Shown here piece after piece: positions 16,657 through 25,053 of a stretch of DNA of 28,859 nucleotides. Numbering within the stretch: the first letter of the stretch is position 1; the number at the start of each line of letters is the position of its first letter. Source of the stretch: Candidatus Omnitrophota bacterium (GTDB taxonomy: Bacteria > Omnitrophota > Gorgyraeia > Duberdicusellales > 4484-171); NCBI GenBank assembly GCA_028710385.1, contig JAQTUC010000002.1:1-28859 (forward strand), in the 5' to 3' direction. The notes under the pieces were generated by a model. The model was not told the origin of the DNA. It worked only from the letters and a program-made list of their open reading frames with translations, and ran no database searches. The translations under genes and the position numbers were made by a program.

Positions 16657-17094
16657 TTATTCGTTAATGTTTTTTTGTCCATTTTGATAGACAGCTTCCG
16701 GATATAATCCTTTTTCGGCCATTTCAGCTTCTATCATATAGACCTTTTCTGCCTGGAACAAATAATCGGCATACTCAACGGAATTGTAGTTTGCATTGTT
16801 TAATTCCTGCTTTTCTTCTTCCTCCAGCTTTTTTCGCTCATCACCCAGATTAAATTCCAGGCGGCTTTGCAGCTGGTCGCTGTGCTCGGCATCTCTTAAA
16901 AGCCTGTCCTTTACTTCTTCGTGTATGTCGTTTCTTCCGGAAATTTCTGAAATACTAAGGCAGCCTTCAAGCCTTTCCAGCATCTGCTTACGGAATTGTA
17001 TAACCTTAAGTTTCATTTCCTGTTTATGTATCCACATACCTTCAAGCTTTTTACGCTCTTCAAAATATATTTTTTTCAATAATTCAATATACAT
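16657..17094 (-). CDS. Hypothetical charged helical protein, just outside the island
   Basis: 145-codon ORF with SD AAGGAGGG; no recognisable motif. Confidence 0.65.
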   Translation of the reverse strand: MYIELLKKIYFEERKKLEGMWIHKQEMKLKVIQFRKQMLERLEGCLSISEISGRNDIHEEVKDRLLRDAEHSDQLQSRLEFNLGDERKKLEEEEKQELNNANYNSVEYADYLFQAEKVYMIEAEMAEKGLYPEAVYQNGQKNINE

Positions 17095-17164
17095 AAACCC
17101 TCCTTTGTGTGAATTTTTATATTATAAACGGAATTTATGGCTGTCCTGGCAGTTAAAACTTTGA

Positions 17165-17203
17165 AGTAAACCCTGTTAGAAAACATCATTTTTCTAACAG
17201 GGT
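17165..17203. repeat. Perfect 14-bp hairpin after the attR tRNA fragment; probable original tRNA terminator and member of the CTAACRGGG repeat family
   Basis: ACCCTGTTAGAAAA (17170-17183) / TTTTCTAACAGGGT (17190-17203). Confidence 0.75.
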
Positions 17204-17205
17204 AA

Positions 17206-17250
17206 ATGGCGGCGAGTGGATTTGAACCACCGACGCAACGGGTATGAGCC
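17206..17250 (-). repeat. att site: duplicated 3' half of tRNA-Met
   Basis: ATGGCGGCGAGTGGATTTGAACCACCGACGCAACGGGTATGAGCC, identical to 24968-25012. Confidence 0.95.
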
Positions 17251-17525
17251 CGCCAAAATTGTTTTGATTTCATTAGCCTTTGCACCACGTACGCCTTTAC
17301 CTCCTTTAAATTATATTATACCATTTTTTTTATAAAATTAGCGCACTGTAAAAAATTAATTTAACGAAAGAAAATTTATAGGCAAAGAAGGCATACATAC
17401 ACTCCCTCGCCCATAAACTTCTTATGCGCAAGCCCTATATTTTTCTCTGCTGAATTTTGCTTATCCTTTTACTCAGCTTGTTACTAATGTTGAAATTTCC
17501 CATAAGAAAGCCAATGAGTTTTTAG

Positions 17526-17687
17526 TTAGAAAAGGCATCCTAGAAGGTGACTTAAATCAACTTTTGGTCTTTTGCCTAATCTATAAGGATGCAACGAACA
17601 ACTAGTGTTTGCGCAGCATCGAACTTCCTTGTAATGGTTACAACAACATTCTAAACACTTTTTTCGGATAGCCTTTATCGGCGTCAT
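17526..17687 (-). CDS. Small Cys-rich phage-type protein (53 aa)
   Basis: MTPIKAIRKKCLECC...EVRCC...CSLHPYRLGKRP; SD AAGGAGGT before ATG 17687. Confidence 0.75.
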   Translation of the reverse strand: MTPIKAIRKKCLECCCNHYKEVRCCANTSCSLHPYRLGKRPKVDLSHLLGCLF

Positions 17688-17727
17688 TTTTACCTCCTTA
17701 AGAGAGTTTTTTACCAATGTTGTTTTC

Positions 17728-17870
17728 TTTTAATTACTAGTTACTATAATTTAAGAATATTCTAGTAATTAAAAGTAGTAGTGTAGTTTAAGAAGAATAT
17801 TCTTTCTTTTAATATTCTAGTAATTAATATACTCTCTAGAATAATTAATATAGCTTAATTAATATTTAAT
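17728..17870. repeat. AT-rich cluster of direct and inverted repeats (origin-like)
   Basis: AATATTCTAGTAATTA at 17756-17771 and 17811-17826; TTTTAATTACTAG / CTAGTAATTAAAA inverted (17728-17740, 17762-17774); palindrome AAGAATATTCTT at 17793-17804. Confidence 0.65.
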
Positions 17871-18102
17871 TACTTTCGGGACTATTAATGTTACCAGATA
17901 GATACTCTTCAATCACAACCTTAACGTCCTTGACATCTTTCTCTCTAAAGTTGTTTCCATGATGCCACTTACCATCCTTTTGGTACAATCGTGAAATAGT
18001 TATATTAGGGATAATCATGTTGTGTCCATCTTTAGTAACTTCATTGTCCCAGACTGACAGGATTACTTGACCGGATTTACATTGTTTTGATATGTTACTC
18101 AT
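17866..18102 (-). CDS. Small hypothetical protein, possible PC4-like ssDNA-binding fold
   Basis: Beta-rich pattern LSVWDNE...ITISRLYQKDGKWHHGNNF followed by a C-terminal helix; fold call is inference. Confidence 0.6.
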   Translation of the reverse strand: MSNISKQCKSGQVILSVWDNEVTKDGHNMIIPNITISRLYQKDGKWHHGNNFREKDVKDVKVVIEEYLSGNINSPESN

Positions 18103-18194
18103 TGTTTTTCTCCGTTTTGTTTTTGTTAATATTTTCTACTCCCCATTGTAACAATTTCATTAACTCATAGGCTTGCACCCCCTTTTTGTTGATA

Positions 18195-18344
18195 CTAAAG
18201 GAGATAAAAGGCATTGGTAAAACAAAAAACCCGCCGCCTAAAGATTAAGGCAACGGGTCTATCTCCTTTAGGCAATTAATAGAAATAAAAAAACCCAATA
18301 TCTTAAAGAAATTTTAGATATTGGGTTATTCTTCTTAATCGCCT
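18195..18344 (-). terminator. Two tandem long hairpins, each containing an intrinsic terminator (- strand)
   Basis: CCCGUUGCCU/AGGCGGCGGG + U-tract (18230-18257) and AACCCAAUAUCU/AGAUAUUGGGUU + U-tract (18292-18327); the mismatches become G-U pairs only on the - strand. Confidence 0.75.
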
Positions 18345-19340
18345 ATTCAATATATAACATATTAAAGCTTACTATGTCAATAAATTATGGCGAAACAAGA
18401 AAATTTAAAACGTTTACAATTTTTATAATTGTTTAAAGTATAAGGAGTTAGAGCTTTTCAAAATTATTTTTCAAAAAAGTTAAAATTGAGAATGAATATA
18501 GCAAAAAAGTGCTCTTGGTATTATCACTTTAACGTTCAAACTTCCCCTTCATTTACAAAGACAAAATAAGGTAGATATTAGATAGAAACAAGGTAGAAGC
18601 CAATAAAATCAAGCAAAGTAGAAAAAGGCAGAAAAGAAAAGTAAATAATTGACCGGCTCCATTCATAAACAAAAACGGCATATTGAGCACTTTTTCGCTA
18701 TAGCTTAGATGACTTGTCAAAATCCGCGGGAAACTAATTTAAGCCATAGGCTGCAAGGCATATAGCCTAACTATCAATGAGTGGCTAAAATAAGGCGCAA
18801 AATACCTTTTATTCTTCATTTATTCATACTTACGACGCAAAAATACCCTTATTATTGATATTTTATGCCAAAAAAAAATATTTTGGCATTTACTGTTTTA
18901 GTAAATGCCAAATTGAAATAAAATTAAATAATAAAATCAATGATTTGACGTTGGCAGGGTTTAATTTAGCAAAAATTTGTTCGGGGGCATTCGGGATACC
19001 AACTGTTTTCTTTTTTCGCTTGGATTACCATTAAAACTCTTTACAAATATTATGTTTTTCTAGTTGGCTATTATTATTTTTGGATTTACCGAACAATCCT
19101 TCTTCGGGGAATAGGCTATTTTTAAGTAATATCAATTTTGCACAATAGAATCAATGACTTTAGCCATTTTAATTAAATCGGCTGAAATTACGTTCGGGTG
19201 TGCTTCGGTAAATAGTAGAAAATTTAGAGGAAATATTAAACGCCATAGCCTTTTAGCTTTGCTACTTTATTGTCTAAAAAATATATACAATATTTTCTAT
19301 CCCACCCTTTCTTAAAAATCTCTGGATATTCTAACACAGT

Positions 19341-20087
19341 TTATTTATTTTTAGTAATAACTTCGCCCACACGAACAGTTTTTTCTTCTCCATCAATTAT
19401 CACAACCACATAATCCTTATTTACTTTTTTAATTGTAATGTCTTCCTTGGTTTCTCCTTCAGAAATAAAACTGTTATTTATTATTGCTGAATTTTTCCCT
19501 TTTTCATCAACAACTACTCCTTGCAATTTATAAAAACAAGCTCCTTCTAGTTTGTCAAAATAAGCCATACTTTCTTTATTCTGTTGATTTAAATATTCTT
19601 TAGTTTCTTTAATCAATTTTTGGGCATCTTCCAACCATTCTTCTTGTTTATTTCTTTTTTCAAGCTCTTTATATATATCTTGTAAACCAATAGTTTCTCT
19701 AGTTTCTTGGGAGAGACACGTTAACCATTTAAAATAATACTCATGTGCAAATTTTAAAGAAAGCCCTGAAGCACGTTCATTATTTGTCATAAATGCCAAA
19801 TAGCCCTTAATGGTGAAATCCATATATCCTAGTAAATATTCTTGACATTTTTTATCAGCAATTTCAATACTCTCGGCTTCGCGCTTAATTTCCTGAAGTC
19901 TTGCGACAGGCTCACTCAATGCAATACGTGAAGTACTACTTGCAATTTCATTTGCATCATTCCATTTATTAACTATTTCTTTAAGTTTTTTTGTATAGTC
20001 TTCTTTATGCCTTTCTTTTGAAGAACAAGCTGACAAAATAATTATTAATATTAAAAACGATAATATATATGATAATTTAATTTTCAT
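19341..20087 (-). CDS. Lipoprotein with a helical N-terminal domain and a C-terminal PilP/GspC-like beta domain
   Basis: Lipobox ILSAC; C-terminal KLQGVVVD...SAIINNSFISEGETKEDITIKKVNKDYVVV. ATG 20087 preferred over TTG 20093. Domain call is inference. Confidence 0.75.
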   Translation of the reverse strand: MKIKLSYILSFLILIIILSACSSKERHKEDYTKKLKEIVNKWNDANEIASSTSRIALSEPVARLQEIKREAESIEIADKKCQEYLLGYMDFTIKGYLAFMTNNERASGLSLKFAHEYYFKWLTCLSQETRETIGLQDIYKELEKRNKQEEWLEDAQKLIKETKEYLNQQNKESMAYFDKLEGACFYKLQGVVVDEKGKNSAIINNSFISEGETKEDITIKKVNKDYVVVIIDGEEKTVRVGEVITKNK

Positions 20088-20290
20088 TTCCAAAGAGAAA
20101 AATACCTTGCAAATTTACTTAACTTTAAACTACATATTTTATCCTTTTTGATTTACAGGAAAATAATACCCCCACCTTAAGGATTGGTCAAGATTATATA
20201 TTATAAATATAAGGAAAAGTATACCGATTATTAAATGCCTAAACAAACTTTTGAATGTTATAGTTTTCTCGCAAAGTTATTATAAGTCAT

Positions 20291-20779
20291 TCAAAATCCA
20301 GAGCCTTTTAGCTTTGCTACTTTATTGTCTAAAAAATATATACAATATTTTCTATCCCACCCTTTCTTAAAAGTCTCTGAATACTCCCAAACCTCAGCTT
20401 TCCTGCCCTTTTTGTCATATTCAGCAATCTTAATTAAAGAAGGTTCTCCGATAAGCCTTTTAACGTTTTCTTTTGTCATGCCTAATGAAATCTTGCTAAA
20501 CCTGCCTATAGTGTCGCCTAATTTGTATTCTTCCGCACCTTCGCCATAGCTTATTAGAATTATATCCTTATCTATCTTAACTATTTTACCTCCACAAACA
20601 TTTTCATTGGCTAGGTACAAACTATCGCCTATTTGTACAGAATCGGAAATTATCCCATTTATCTCGCATGAATTTTTAGCACCCCGCTCTAGAACAATTA
20701 GTTTATATTTTTTATTAAAAACAAATCCTAAAGTAACTAAAAGAAAAATTACCACCAAAATTATTACTAGGTTTTTCAT
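20291..20779 (-). CDS. Exported protein with a PilP/GspC-like domain and a BamE/SmpA-like C-terminal domain
   Basis: N-terminal TM/signal; EINGII...GGKIVKIDKDIILISY; ISLGMTKENVKRLIGEP...VWEY...IYFLDNKV. Confidence 0.75.
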   Translation of the reverse strand: MKNLVIILVVIFLLVTLGFVFNKKYKLIVLERGAKNSCEINGIISDSVQIGDSLYLANENVCGGKIVKIDKDIILISYGEGAEEYKLGDTIGRFSKISLGMTKENVKRLIGEPSLIKIAEYDKKGRKAEVWEYSETFKKGWDRKYCIYFLDNKVAKLKGSGF

Positions 20780-20836
20780 TTTTAGCCCCCCTTCGCTAAC
20801 ACAAATGGTAGAAATTTATGTTTACGATTTGTTTTA

Positions 20837-20866
20837 ATTATACACCATCATATATGGGGGTGTCAA
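20837..20866 (-). promoter_or_regulatory. Consensus sigma70 promoter overlapped by a palindromic operator
   Basis: TTGACA (20866-20861)-N18-TATAAT (20842-20837); palindrome ACACC-AT-CATATATG-GG-GGTGT at 20842-20863. Confidence 0.75.
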
Positions 20867-20896
20867 ATATAGAGGCATCATGAAATAATAAAAAAT

Positions 20897-21112
20897 ATGA
20901 ATAACTTGACTGGGGCTAAATTAGGTAAAAAACTTAAAGCGTTGCGCAAGAAACGCGGAATAACTCAAGAGCAATTAGCTGACCTTATAGAAACCAGCTA
21001 CAAATACGTTCAAAGAATAGAAGGGAAAAATCCTCCCGACATACGATTAACTACCATCACAAGACTTGCCAAGGCACTGAAGGTAAAACCTGAAGAGCTA
21101 TTGAAATCCTAG
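20897..21112 (+). CDS. XRE-family helix-turn-helix regulator
   Basis: LKALRKKRGITQEQLADLIETSYKYVQRIEG...IRLTTITRLAKALKV. Confidence 0.92.
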   Translation: MNNLTGAKLGKKLKALRKKRGITQEQLADLIETSYKYVQRIEGKNPPDIRLTTITRLAKALKVKPEELLKS

Positions 21113-21143
21113 AACAACTATTTGCAACAAACAATATTTTCTC

Positions 21144-21171
21144 TTGAATAACTAAAGCTGCGTGTTATAAT
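21144..21171 (+). promoter_or_regulatory. Candidate sigma70 promoter with extended -10
   Basis: TTGAAT (21144-21149)-N16-TATAAT (21166-21171), preceded by TG-T. Confidence 0.65.
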
Positions 21172-21238
21172 TCCATCGCAAGATAGATAGGCGGCTTACG
21201 TATTTCTTGTAATTGCTTGCATAAGATTGGAGAAAAAA

Positions 21239-21394
21239 ATGTCAACTTACAAAAGAAGACCAGAAAGTGACACATGGCATTTCAACAAAAAATGCTCAAA
21301 TTACCCAACTAAGCAAGATGCGATAAGCCGAAGCAAAAAACCTGCTTCTGGAGAAAAATGCAACGAATGTATGGCAAAATCCAAAAAGCATTGA
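21239..21394 (+). CDS. Small His/Cys protein (51 aa), not in the ORF track; possible Zn binder
   Basis: MSTYKRRPESDTWHFNKKCSNYPTKQDAISRSKKPASGEKCNECMAKSKKH; SD GGAGA; own promoter. Confidence 0.7.
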   Translation: MSTYKRRPESDTWHFNKKCSNYPTKQDAISRSKKPASGEKCNECMAKSKKH

Positions 21395-21553
21395 GTAATT
21401 AAGAATTGTTCTTAGCATGTTGCTAAGCGTAGCCGCCATCTATTATAATTAAACCTCAATATCCCCCCCCATTTTTCTACCCTTTAAAGAAAGAAAATAT
21501 GTCAGAATTGGCAATCGCAGTTTAGATATGTGGAAAAATAGGAATGTTTTAAA

Positions 21554-22129
21554 TTAATGCTGGGGGCAGTATTTTTTTGTAATAACAAAAATATTCTTTA
21601 TATACTGCGAAGATAAGGCAGAAAGTTTATTACCCATATTTCGCTCTAGCTCTATAGGTGTACTTGTCCTATTGAATTTGGTAAATATGTCTGTCGCTCC
21701 ATCATATAATTCCTCGGTAGCCTTGTAAATAATTTCTCCTAGCTGGGCATCATATCCTTTCATTAATGAGATATTCTTAAATTGTAAATCCTCCCACATA
21801 GCGTCTAAAACCTCAATATGCTGATGCACTATAGCAAGAATATTAGCCCCAGAAACATTAGCGTTACGAGATTCCGTTATAAGAAGATTCAAACGCTTCC
21901 TAATTAATGAAGAAAATTCGATTAAAGGAACAAATGACTTTAAAATTGATAATTCATAAAAAGCATATTCCAAATTATATTTACGTTCATTTTTTCTATT
22001 ACGCACAGACCAACAAATATTAATAATGAGTACTATAACGTTAAGTATTAAAGCCAAATAGTTTGCTAATGTTCTTGGGTCACAAATCTGCGCAAAAAAA
22101 GATGGGTTGGACTGGACGACTTCAGGCAT
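21554..22129 (-). CDS. Single-TM helical protein, third gene of the STAS/ATPase operon
   Basis: TM YLALILNVIVLIINICW followed by basic RNRKNERK; start overlaps the upstream stop by 8 nt. Confidence 0.75.
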   Translation of the reverse strand: MPEVVQSNPSFFAQICDPRTLANYLALILNVIVLIINICWSVRNRKNERKYNLEYAFYELSILKSFVPLIEFSSLIRKRLNLLITESRNANVSGANILAIVHQHIEVLDAMWEDLQFKNISLMKGYDAQLGEIIYKATEELYDGATDIFTKFNRTSTPIELERNMGNKLSALSSQYIKNIFVITKKYCPQH

Positions 22130-22472
22130 TTAGAATATCTCCCTGACTAGCTTTTAGTAATGCGGCATCAACATGATTTTTGATTTTATTTTGAATATGC
22201 TCTGTCGTATTGAACTGATATTTAGCGAAATACCCATCCCTGCCAAGCCTTTGCACTGGAATTTCAAATAATCCAAGAAAAAAAGATTTATTTATGCTTA
22301 CGATATTGGTTGGAATATCAATAATAATCTTTTCATAATCCTTTTCTAGCCTTTCGAAATCAAGGTTTTTGTCCTTAAGTTTTTTCAAGACAGACTCACC
22401 ATTCTCTCTCCCCACAAGAGACGTTTCCTCTGGAAGCAAAAAATCTTCTAACTTAATTGTTATTTGACTCAT
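22122..22472 (-). CDS. STAS-like domain protein (DUF4325-like)
   Basis: LVGRENGE...IIIDIPTNIVSINKSFFLGLF...LGRDGYFAKYQF pattern. Confidence 0.7.
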   Translation of the reverse strand: MSQITIKLEDFLLPEETSLVGRENGESVLKKLKDKNLDFERLEKDYEKIIIDIPTNIVSINKSFFLGLFEIPVQRLGRDGYFAKYQFNTTEHIQNKIKNHVDAALLKASQGDILNA

Positions 22473-23816
22473 TTATTGGCTCTCCTTGTTCCTTTCCTCA
22501 AGATATTTTCTATCAATCCTAAAATTGCCTGCAAAGATTGTTCCTTCTAATTTGTTTTCTAAATATATGACTTTTTTATCGTCTGGTATTTGGTGGAGGT
22601 CTGCCGCTTTATTAAAAGCGATGATTCGTCTTACTTCCTTCATTGCGCCCACTTCTTTATTCACTATGGGGTAAGTGTAATCAATTATAATCTCAGCGTG
22701 CCCTGAAATCAAGTAAATTTCAGCCGCCTTTTTTGGTGATTTAATTGCGTCAATAAAGGTTAATACGTCCATTATACCCTGACCGCGAGTACTTCCTTGT
22801 CCAAATTCTGTTCTTTTTGAACTTATACCATCTTGTAAAGCCATCACAGTCCAAATTGCTTCCTCGTCTTGCGATTGAAAAATCTTTCCCTTAACTTTTT
22901 CCCATAATGGCTTTTGCTTATCTATTATGGCTTTAACCCTTGCTATGACTTCAGCAGCCGTTGATTTTTCATCTGACAGATTTTCGTAAAAGGTTTTCCC
23001 ATAGTTGATAATCGCGAAACTACAATTATGTTCATCTTTGTCATAACAACCTAAAGCATGCCATTTTCCTTCATTGTTTCCACAATGCTCTTCTGCGTTA
23101 CCTATGATTTCGCCTATTATACCTATCAAACTAGATTTCGTAGCTATGTTCATCTCAAATCCATTATGCCTTAGGCAATTATTAAAATATTCTGCCAATT
23201 CTTCGCTAGCTTTACCTTTGTTTGTCGGATTCAATCTTGAACCATCAATTTTTATAGTAAAATATTTGTCCTTGTAGTCAAAATCTACAATGTCTGCTGA
23301 AAATTTTTCTGCGTTTATCCCTAGTTCATTTAAGATTCCAAATGATAGTAAAAAATCATTAACTTTCTTCAACCTGGATATTTTTCCAGACAACCTTATA
23401 AAGATACCTTTTTTCTGCCAATAATTTCTTTCCTCCTTTATAATCCTATCAAACAGATATGAAGCAGATAGACTAATTTCTTTAGTATTCTCGTGTGTAA
23501 TAAAAATATCTCTTGGTTTTCTTCTTTTAAAAATAGTATTTAACTTCTCAAAGAATTCATTAGTAACCACGGGATTACTAAAGAAACAAAATTTTTCAGG
23601 TATCTCTATGGTACATACCTCGAGTTTCCTAGCTCTCTGCGCTTTTTTCTCAACGTAATAACGATTATATAAGTGATATTTTATTTTTATAACTCTAGGT
23701 AACCGCGCTTTCCTAGAAAGCCTTCTTTTTAATCTGCTTCTTATTTCACGAAAGAAAAGCTTTTTTTGTCTACGTACTAAAGATTTTTTATTAATTTTGG
23801 CTCTCTTTTTGTTCAT
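22473..23816 (-). CDS. Basic N-terminus + STAS-like region + GHKL/histidine-kinase-like ATPase
   Basis: N box GEIIGNAEEH, G1-like IINYGKT (Asp replaced by Asn), G2-like GISSKR...TRGQGI; no H-box dimerisation domain seen. Confidence 0.75.
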   Translation of the reverse strand: MNKKRAKINKKSLVRRQKKLFFREIRSRLKRRLSRKARLPRVIKIKYHLYNRYYVEKKAQRARKLEVCTIEIPEKFCFFSNPVVTNEFFEKLNTIFKRRKPRDIFITHENTKEISLSASYLFDRIIKEERNYWQKKGIFIRLSGKISRLKKVNDFLLSFGILNELGINAEKFSADIVDFDYKDKYFTIKIDGSRLNPTNKGKASEELAEYFNNCLRHNGFEMNIATKSSLIGIIGEIIGNAEEHCGNNEGKWHALGCYDKDEHNCSFAIINYGKTFYENLSDEKSTAAEVIARVKAIIDKQKPLWEKVKGKIFQSQDEEAIWTVMALQDGISSKRTEFGQGSTRGQGIMDVLTFIDAIKSPKKAAEIYLISGHAEIIIDYTYPIVNKEVGAMKEVRRIIAFNKAADLHQIPDDKKVIYLENKLEGTIFAGNFRIDRKYLEERNKESQ

Positions 23817-23897
23817 TAATTTATCTATTTTTCCAATATTTAAATTTTACCAAACTAATTTCATAATATATTTTATACATATAATCTTTTAGCACAA

Positions 23898-24824
23898 CTA
23901 AATATTTAATGGGTGCCTGTCAACCGCCTGTTTTAACTGCTTATCATCACAACCTAGATAAAACCTTGCAGTAGTAGAAATATCGGAATGTCCCGCCAAT
24001 AGCTGAATATCTCTTAGATTAACCCCATTTCTAAGCATTAAAGTGCAAAAAGTATGTCTTAGTATTTGGGGAGATAACTTCTTTTTAAATTTTATTTTAG
24101 CCCTCAACTCTTTAAATAAAATATTTATTCCTTGCCCTGTTAATGCGGAAGCTTTTCTATTAGTAGAAACAAAAATATTATCAACCCCTGAACGCTTAGG
24201 TCTAAGCTTGAGATAATCAGCAAGGTATTCTTTGACGGTTTCATTAAGAGGAATTAGCCGTTCTTTGTTTTTTGCAAAAACCCTTATATATCCTCGCTCT
24301 AAGTTCAAATCTCCAAGCTTTAAGCTAAGTAATTCTTTTTTCCTTATTCCTGTAAAAAGAAACAATGCCAATATAGCTACGTTCCTAGACCATCTTGATT
24401 TATAGTATTTAGGCATATCTAAGCAAACTCGCATTAAGTCTCTGGCTTCCTCTTCATCCAAGAATTCAGGCAATCTCCTAGTTAATTTGGGCTTCTCCAG
24501 CCCCTCAAAAGGGTTTTTAGACAAATAACCTCTTTTTACAAGAAAGCTGCAAAATGACTTTATTCCTTGCATTGAATTGATTATCGTTCTAGGTGAGTTG
24601 CCGTTTACTCGTTGGCTGACAAAAAAACCCCTTAGATTAAGAGTAGTTAACGATTCTATGTCTGATTTTATTACTTTATAGCGTAAATACCTGCAGAAAG
24701 GATTCATGCTCCGTTTGTACCAATTAATGGTTGTAGGCTCCAGACAACGCTCCAAAAGCGAGTAATTAATGAATTCCTGAAAAGCATCTTGTATTTTCAT
24801 AACATTGGCTATACGGGTAAGCAC
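23898..24824 (-). CDS. Tyrosine recombinase/integrase (XerC/D-like)
   Basis: SAM-like N-domain; FTGIRKKELL (Arg I), SPQILRHTF, LAGHSDISTTARFY; adjacent to the tRNA att site. Start is GTG 24824 or ATG 24800. Confidence 0.93.
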   Translation of the reverse strand: MLTRIANVMKIQDAFQEFINYSLLERCLEPTTINWYKRSMNPFCRYLRYKVIKSDIESLTTLNLRGFFVSQRVNGNSPRTIINSMQGIKSFCSFLVKRGYLSKNPFEGLEKPKLTRRLPEFLDEEEARDLMRVCLDMPKYYKSRWSRNVAILALFLFTGIRKKELLSLKLGDLNLERGYIRVFAKNKERLIPLNETVKEYLADYLKLRPKRSGVDNIFVSTNRKASALTGQGINILFKELRAKIKFKKKLSPQILRHTFCTLMLRNGVNLRDIQLLAGHSDISTTARFYLGCDDKQLKQAVDRHPLNI

Positions 24825-24859
24825 TTAAAGCTAATGGTTGATTTTTTGAGGTAATTACT

Positions 24860-24902
24860 AATTGGCGGGGTAACTCAGATTGGTAAGCAAATGGCTCATG
24901 CC
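24860..24902 (+). repeat. Inverted degenerate copy of the tRNA-Met 5' half
   Basis: 38 of 44 aligned positions match the - strand of 25003-25046. Confidence 0.85.
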
Positions 24903-24968
24903 AGATAGCATTTTTGCCATTTTCACCATAGACAGCTTGGGGGTTTTGAAAAAAGAATGGAAAGAATA

Positions 24969-25042
24969 TGGCGGCGAGTGGATTTGAACCACCGACGCAA
25001 CGGGTATGAGCCGTTTGCTCTACCAAGCTGAGCTACACCGCC
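24969..25042 (-). tRNA. tRNA-Met(CAT), elongator type; CCA not encoded
   Basis: GGCGGTG/CGCCGCC-A acceptor stem, D-arm GCTCAGCTTGGTAGAGC, anticodon arm AACGG-CTCATAC-CCGTT, T-arm GGTGG-TTCAAAT-CCACT. G1-C72 pair argues against initiator; Ile2 is not fully excluded. Confidence 0.95.
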
Positions 25043-25053
25043 AATTTTTCAAA

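Follow-up and report, generated by a model that had tools for sequence, protein, structure and literature searches.

An inverted, decayed copy of the target tRNA 5' half recurs beside a family of tRNA-targeting XerC/D-like integrases

The island and its tRNA-Met target

The window, by which we mean the whole stretch of 28,859 nucleotides analysed here, is one entire contig of a 1.46-Mb metagenome-assembled genome of a Candidatus Omnitrophota bacterium, and the runs that contain this region are landfill metagenomes. It holds an island of 7.7 kb inserted in a gene for elongator-type tRNA-Met(CAT), the sole elongator tRNA-Met found among the 40 tRNAs of the assembly (Table 1). ARAGORN bounds this gene at 24968-25043 on the minus strand and Rfam at 24969-25042. 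The att repeat reaches from tRNA position 30 to one base beyond the discriminator, its two copies being identical over 45 nt, and while the 5' part of the gene (to about position 29) is host DNA, everything from position 30 onward lies within the repeat at attL. The GC content is 0.30-0.36 in the island versus 0.39-0.47 in the flanks. The empty site is preserved in a genome of the same genus (G005, locus L004), where an identical upstream flank and tRNA are followed directly by the homologue of the attR flank, and contigs from a second run of the same study (X2) join 17105/17180 to 24961 and thus skip the island. [quoted passage not shown] The element therefore is an integrated island of ordinary type, and its crossover lies at the anticodon arm, as follows from the 45-nt repeat, the tRNA-proximal integrase, the empty site in G005 and the contigs without the island; an integrase next to a tRNA, a direct repeat, an empty relative and a crossover in the anticodon loop are what define a tRNA-integrating tyrosine-integrase island, and all four were found.

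Table 1. Features of the island, its target gene and the attachment regions in the window.
Feature	Position	Strand	Basis
Displaced original terminator of the host tRNA gene (hairpin and T-run), on the far side of the island	17168..17202	-	attR flank sequence, read by eye
att repeat at attR, formed by the host's own 3' part of the tRNA, now displaced	17206..17250	-	perfect 45-nt direct repeat; empty-site comparison
Integrated island, 7.7 kb	17251..24967		repeats, GC, empty site
Integrase, 300-aa XerC/D-like tyrosine recombinase without arm-binding domain	23898..24800	-	Pfam PF00589 1.6e-30, PF02899
Family-wide conserved pre-integrase block, candidate promoter or operator	24807..24840	-	aligns in every family spacer, irrespective of the tRNA targeted
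Inverted, decayed half-copy (leader AATT and tRNA positions 1-41)	24860..24902	+	local alignment of tRNA plus leader
Spacer S between tRNA 3' end and copy, T-rich right after the tRNA	24903..24967	-	sequence, fold
att repeat at attL, covering tRNA positions 30-74 and 1 nt more	24968..25012	-	perfect direct repeat
Target gene, elongator-type tRNA-Met(CAT), no encoded CCA	24969..25042	-	ARAGORN; Rfam RF00005, 62 bits

With a tyrosine integrase by the regenerated tRNA, a 3' direct repeat starting in the anticodon arm and a low GC content in an island that is absent from a relative, the element is a standard member of the anticodon-loop islands, site class A of Islander (PMC4383910). It differs from them in one respect: the standard island carries one half of its target in direct orientation, whereas the attP arm in the window adds the other half, inverted and decayed.

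Two further observations concern the surroundings of the attachment site. On the far side of the island (window 17251-17330, minus strand) and in the attR-side arms of L225, L228 and L229 a strong Shine-Dalgarno sequence and a very short open reading frame precede the att core, the reading frame being directed at the att repeat or crossing it; just upstream of them the window has an extended -10-like motif TGGTATAAT, which would face the integrase gene across attP in the excised circle. In addition, partial tRNA-Met copies in the same orientation as the gene are found within a few hundred bases of it in many relatives (for example G001:C1:152797-152854, G003:C31:2024-2068 and G053:C59:942-984); at the tRNA-Met locus partial duplications or old integrations are frequent.

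The inverted half-copy and its recurrence

An earlier note on this DNA, made from the letters alone, had pointed to a plus-strand segment in front of the integrase gene that matches the tRNA 5' half and 4 nt of its leader at 38 of 44 positions. This match is borne out, as the local alignment covers tRNA positions -4 to 41 with 38 of 44 columns identical, one gap of 1 nt and five substitutions. Its score of 56 compares with 29 for the best of 2000 shuffles of the 143-nt intergenic stretch (z = 14.8) and with 25 for the best match elsewhere in the window, and the first 26 nt of the copy are also listed as an inverted pair by the repeat search. The observation that the copy ends where the att repeat begins stands as well, since the repeat starts at position 30 and the overlap between the two is the anticodon loop. 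What had to be corrected is the distance to the integrase, which starts at the ATG at 24800 and not at the GTG at 24824, so that 59 nt instead of 36 nt separate it from the copy; this start is backed by the family alignment and by the gene call of 300 aa. [quoted passage not shown] Its anticodon loop reads CTCATGC versus CTCATAC in the tRNA. We rejected a functional tRNA or tRNA half, as G10A and the deletion of G22 disrupt the D-stem and the 3' half is absent; neither ARAGORN nor Rfam calls a tRNA gene on the plus strand here.

Only one of the 40 tRNA genes of the assembly has an inverted partial copy of itself nearby, namely the tRNA-Met of the window, and in a control of 94 tRNAs from 236 fetched loci every inverted self-copy is located beside an integrase of the family described below. 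None was found behind tRNAs in loci outside this family or behind the other tRNAs of the window genome, and a host-derived trailer or a normal feature of tRNA loci was rejected for this reason. The inverted copy belongs to the island and not to the host. Spacer S contains a sense-like stretch at about 24917-24929 that is able to pair locally with part of the copy. An open reading frame of 86 aa (24766-25026), which has a counterpart in L223, was considered as a small-protein gene; since it is not open in L143, L230 and L070 the spacer is regarded as non-coding. Among Rfam families the region matches tRNA only, a weak match to HPnc0260 (31 bits against a gathering score of 59) being disregarded.

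About 75 relatives of the integrase with 54-93% identity were identified, all of them metagenomic and, where named, mostly labelled Omnitrophota. No close relative was found in 60 related genomes, in which the best matches are housekeeping Xer proteins with approximately 33% identity. We fetched 25 loci of this family, 24 of which are readable over the interval between tRNA and integrase. The integrase tree separates a Met clade from an fMet(+Arg) clade with a support of 98/96, the Arg clade being nested in the latter.

The earlier note had proposed to search other integrase leaders for segments antisense to their own target tRNA, and such segments do exist: the inverted 5'-half copy is present in 12 of the 24 readable loci, representing 8-9 lineages, at a position 30-68 nt after the tRNA and 18-60 nt before the integrase gene. 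Ten of them were scored against shuffles with z values of 7.3-15.9 (window, L063, L231, L143, L230, L146, L067, L234, L238 and L070) and two were read directly (L223 and L239). The other 12 loci, seven with tRNA-Met or tRNA-fMet and all five with tRNA-Arg, lack the copy (z <= 0.7). The copies are matched to their targets, as those in the Met clade resemble elongator tRNA-Met and those in the fMet clade initiator tRNA-Met in nine of nine cases, and in six of nine (one tie counted) the best match is the very tRNA beside which the copy is located. Because related islands carry copies matched to their own target tRNA, the attachment-site region includes the copy as an inherited component, which is passed on with the att-int module.

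All copies also share their boundaries, starting within a few nucleotides of tRNA +1 and ending at positions 32-43. A promoter copied along with the 5' half had seemed indicated by apparent flank matches in the window, L143 and L230, and was rejected: when the comparison with the host leader and promoter is anchored at tRNA +1, the flank of the copy beyond this point gives p = 0.018 for L230 and values above 0.2 for all others. The anticodon loop is the most altered part of the copy and is mutated in all lineages in which it aligns, with CTCATGC in the window, CGAAT in L063 and L231, AAAAT or TAAAT in L067 and L234 and CGAGT in L238.

Between copy and integrase gene the family shares a conserved block over the last 40 nt before the gene, irrespective of the target. 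The promoter scan did not call it; it may be the promoter or operator of the integrase gene. In L230, L144 and L238 the block resembles the 3' strand of the anticodon stem plus the variable loop of the tRNA, that is the right half-site, with p of about 0.01 each; we did not retain it as a copy of this half-site, since the resemblance is suggestive in these three loci and non-significant overall. A palindromic motif of the form CTCGTCGAG is located 30-65 nt past the tRNA in most family members and in all three target classes. It was seen in the spacers of L237, L147, L146, L067, L234, L238, L241, L071, L068, L069, L072 and L240 and in reversed orientation in L231 and L143; none was seen in the window.

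Crossover point and evolution of the copy

In the four family elements for which the far ends were fetched the att repeat starts at position 30 or 31 and is preceded by a T-rich, unrelated arm. A reversed type is represented by L065 (G066:C6:104309-118002; loci L235 and L236), the integrase of which is 69% identical. Here a truncated tRNA-Met 5' half in sense orientation (positions 1-38) is located 109 nt upstream of the integrase gene and the complete tRNA 13.6 kb downstream; the att repeat of 46 nt consists of leader plus 5' half and ends at tRNA position 38, a second copy of the promoter being brought by the element. No inverted copy of either tRNA half was found in L065. As the repeats of the 3' type start at 30 or 31 and that of L065 ends at 38, the crossover of the family is in the anticodon loop between positions 31 and 38, and as the repeat of L065 is leader plus 5' half and that of the other members the 3' part, this integrase family can use either half of the tRNA as att.

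An element of Mesorhizobium loti carrying the 5' part of a tRNA with its promoter was reportedly described by Zhao and Williams in 2002. Islands with 5' fragments are the minority in Islander, with 159 versus 3760 with 3' fragments out of 3919 (PMC4383910), and archaeal integrases of the pTN3-like type form islands that carry the 5' tRNA part with its promoter (PMC8371274). L065 has exactly this layout. The content of the copy in the window also corresponds to such a 5' att module, reaching from the tRNA start to the anticodon loop; in contrast to these islands the module is inverted, decayed and not used as att, the functional repeat being the 3' half.

Traces of other integrations were seen as well. 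In L241 (400-482) a direct partial copy of the leader and the first 12 bases is located just upstream of the tRNA-fMet gene and is possibly the scar of a 5'-type element. The host genome of L070 contains further 3' fragments of tRNA-fMet (G064:C11:9095-9139 and G064:C8:28599-28643; L226 and L227), in which the repeat runs from position 33 rather than 30/31 and which are probably att scars of another integrase type.

L223 has an integrase 93% identical to that of the window. Only the att-int module is common to both: the identity between window 20824-23897 and L223:1095-3511 falls to approximately 50% immediately past the integrase stop codon, and in L223 the gene next to the integrase encodes an SMC_N/AAA_15/AAA_21 protein that replaces the genes of the window. 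Comparison of these two sequences therefore indicates that the integration module is swapped between cargos. The 3' half in L223 carries the acceptor bases of another host tRNA variant, and its inverted copy differs from that of the window at two positions that are unrelated to the acceptor-stem changes. From this pair we conclude that at short range the copy goes with the element and not with the host.

In close pairs the whole spacer between tRNA and integrase gene (trailer, copy and pre-integrase block) is 94-95% identical versus 79-83% at the third codon positions of the integrase gene; for window and L223 the identity is 95% in spacer S versus 79% at these positions. In the deep pair L063/L231 the integrases are 73% identical and the third positions are saturated (104/210). 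Each copy still resembles the tRNA to 76-82%, and the two have three loop changes in common and agree with each other at about 64%, whereas the trailer beside them is no longer alignable. As the spacers of close pairs exceed the third-position identity and the copies of L063 and L231 outlast the adjacent spacer, the comparison suggests that spacer and copy are under constraint and hence functional, or else that the module was exchanged recently. The mismatches to the tRNA are spread over the whole 5' half, and the similarity is not confined to the presumed integrase half-site at positions 21-31.

The site in L063 (1358-3558) is unusual, as two intact family integrases of 300 aa, which are 73% identical, are located divergently on either side of one tRNA-Met gene. 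Beside the right one the inverted 5'-half copy is found as usual. The left one lacks the conserved pre-integrase block and has a partial tRNA copy (positions 23-62, 36/39 identical, loop mutated) 17 nt before its ATG, so that the site contains three loop-type cores in alternating orientation. The nearest relative of the second integrase of this contig in the tree is that of L231.

Origin and possible role of the copy

We give about an even chance to the explanation that the copy is an orphaned 5' att half-site with a mutated loop, which was made by the integrase at its crossover point and does not act through RNA. The observations in its support are the position within the element, the recurrence, the matching to the target, the common boundary, the loop mutations and the occurrence of a 5'-half att type in the same family. 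The copy would then be the decayed left (5') side of the island's own att site, from the tRNA start through the crossover point in the anticodon loop, lying back to front in the attP arm between the tRNA trailer and the conserved pre-integrase block. Since the inner end of the copy is the crossover point in every lineage, we infer that this junction was cut and joined by the integrase. In the simplest case an ancestral module might have contained, or have picked up, the entire target tRNA gene in an orientation facing the att core; if the opposed cores then recombined, the 3' half together with the trailer would be turned onto the att core and the 5' half would be left orphaned. When the present order (host 5' half, 3' half, trailer, inverted 5' half, integrase gene) is inverted on paper between the two loops, the product is the host 5' half, the inverted trailer and a complete tRNA gene on the opposite strand, divergent from the integrase gene; a whole facing target copy in the ancestor would thus give the present layout in one integrase-catalysed step. 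The same step may have occurred afresh after each change of target, which would fit the presence of both Met and fMet copies, and later mutations of the anticodon loop would prevent further flipping, by which an essential tRNA would be broken. The present state would be a disabled half-att site that may still bind the integrase via its retained left half-site.

Other routes to the observed order (tRNA, trailer, inverted 5' half, integrase gene) were compared with this one on paper and rejected: convergent or divergent tRNA duplicates, fold-back replication and integration in the wrong orientation do not reproduce it without an extra step. Among the 24 family loci neither a complete inverted tRNA gene nor the alternative flipped arrangement was found, and the inversion route is therefore proposed without an observed intermediate. 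Two facts count against parts of this explanation. The copy looks better preserved than expected for a neutral scar, as seen in L063/L231 and in the spacers of close pairs, and the similarity over the whole 5' half is not explained by simple residual binding of a protein. A relic of an earlier inverted integration had been among the ideas of the earlier note. Of the ideas in that note this one, in modified form, is the best supported, since the copy ends at the crossover, travels with the element and has a counterpart in L065, which uses the 5' half as att and thereby shows the source of such a module; the notion of a one-off event has to be given up, as the copy recurs in 8-9 lineages.

Alternatively, the copy would be a working accessory site of attP that could build the recombination complex, set its direction or let the integrase regulate its own gene, a possible but rather doubtful reading. 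The integrase has no arm-binding domain, and a left half-site combined with a non-exchangeable loop might act as a mimic of attB that is bound and yet not recombined. Apart from the better conservation of the copy than of the adjacent spacer in L063 and L231, with an identical derived loop, and the conservation of whole spacers above third codon positions in close pairs, this reading is favored by the constant position of the copy between trailer and pre-integrase block and by the fact that a good left half-site is missing from the left arm of attP at attR in four elements and present in the copy. The resemblance of the pre-integrase block to the right half-site in L230, L144 and L238 points in the same direction, and it is non-significant in most loci. 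Precedents are the IRS repeats of TnpI in Tn4430 and the third symmetry element of FRT, which are accessory recombinase-binding repeats of 12-14 bp in arm-less systems. They share with the window an extra core-type sequence within about 100 bp of the crossover and the missing arm-binding domain; they differ in being short binding motifs, while here about 45 nt of tRNA sequence are kept as a putative binding site. Against a working site speaks that the copy is dispensable, being missing in 12 of the 24 loci including all five with tRNA-Arg and seven with tRNA-Met or tRNA-fMet, and that its conservation extends over positions 1-31 and is not centred on the half-site. The likeness between L063 and L231 could also result from module exchange, as the second integrase of L063 is nearest to that of L231. 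In a more specific form of this idea, which we consider unlikely, the copy would be an attB mimic within attP that assembles the complex, sets direction or couples integrase expression to the integrated state and is re-copied from the new target at each tRNA change; it could do so by presenting the left half-site of the target or by pairing with the target gene. As to a decoy or inversion site, both suggested earlier, an integrase-binding decoy is possible, whereas an active inversion switch is unlikely in view of the mutated loop, the broken D-stem and the single elongator tRNA-Met.

The explanation placed first in the earlier note does not hold up well and has become improbable. In read-through RNA from the tRNA promoter the tRNA 5' half would pair with the antisense segment, which would block maturation or lead to a cut, and the integrase gene would be silenced only when the element is integrated. 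For the read-through RNA (25046-24790) the long hairpin is indeed the minimum-energy fold with -84 kcal/mol and z = -7.3, and the copy starts near tRNA +1 in several loci; the spacer of the window itself is without a clear terminator hairpin. The long hairpin, however, forms because the repeat exists. In four fMet-type loci (L067, L234, L239 and L238) a 20-bp hairpin and a T-run are located between tRNA and copy, these hairpins resting on ViennaRNA folds as the terminator scan did not call those in L067 and L238, and in L231, L146 and others a T-run follows directly after the tRNA. A bias towards G-U pairs is absent, with only one of the five substitutions in the window being G-U compatible on the sense transcript, and the D-arm and loop of the copy are freely mutated. 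Furthermore, the tRNA would fold before the antisense part is synthesised, half of the family is without the copy, and the conserved block with the putative integrase promoter is downstream of the copy, which would leave the copy outside the integrase gene's own transcript if the block is a promoter. Thermodynamically the fold-back is possible; terminators and T-runs, the missing G-U bias and the copyless half of the family speak against it.

Very improbable is an active switch, in which the integrase would flip 24903-25002 between the loop of the tRNA and that of the copy and would thereby alternate the 5' half attached to the 3' half. In its favor, six of the seven loop positions are the same in tRNA and copy, both in the window and in L223, the family integrase is without known directionality control, and inversions driven by integrases between tRNA copies are documented in Thermococcales (PMC8371274, PMC9897764). 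There, too, tyrosine integrases are combined with opposed tRNA repeats, and the resulting inversions leave partial and full copies on opposite strands; the Thermococcales events are on the scale of the chromosome with distant copies, while here the sequences are 100 bp apart in one att region and recur across an integrase family. In the flipped form the only 3' half would be joined to a 5' half that lacks a recognisable promoter, has its D-stem broken and forms a G-G mismatch at acceptor pair 6-67, and the only elongator tRNA-Met found would be destroyed. In other lineages the loops show 2-3 mismatches, and the contigs of four runs over 16900-25400, which drop rare forms and cannot show them, contain neither a strand-changing joint at 24903-25002 nor a circle junction.

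Chance similarity or an assembly chimera at the repeat, to be thought of in a metagenome-assembled contig, is as good as refuted, as the score is far above shuffles, non-family tRNAs have no such copy among the 94 scanned in all, and the same layout recurs in independent assemblies from different samples and databases (L223, L063, L231, L143, L230, L146, L067, L234, L239, L238 and L070).

Two opposed att sites close to one junction are known from CTX-phi, one of the Xer-exploiting elements, where attP1 and attP2 pair with each other in the single-stranded phage genome. The likeness consists in a XerC/D-like recombinase and two opposed core-type sites about 100 bp apart by one junction. In contrast to CTX-phi the partner of the copy in the window is host DNA, and only about 10 bp could pair within the excised element. 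A folded single-strand attP of this type was rejected, as the left arm of attP at attR is unlike the tRNA 5' half and only the loop pairing of about 10 nt is left; the presence of the 45-nt repeat argues for ordinary double-strand recombination.

Inverted 5'-half copies in attP arms are not described in the literature that we searched. The Islander pipeline rejects fragments in opposite orientation as false positives (PMC4383910), and therefore inverted half-copies would not have been catalogued.

In summary, the inverted half-copy is real and recurrent, and it is most likely a disabled att half-site left behind by an integrase-mediated rearrangement; that it still contributes to the recombination complex or to the control of the integrase gene is a realistic possibility. 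Islands targeting tRNA genes are usually described with one half of the target in direct orientation, whereas about half of this family adds the other half, inverted and matched to the target. Should the copy be a scar, the gain and exchange of att sites by such elements would be recorded in it, as would the moves of one integrase lineage between tRNA-Met, initiator tRNA and tRNA-Arg. As a working site, it would represent a simple control of direction or expression for an integrase without an arm-binding domain. Either way, the inverted half-copy is a marker that can be searched for systematically.
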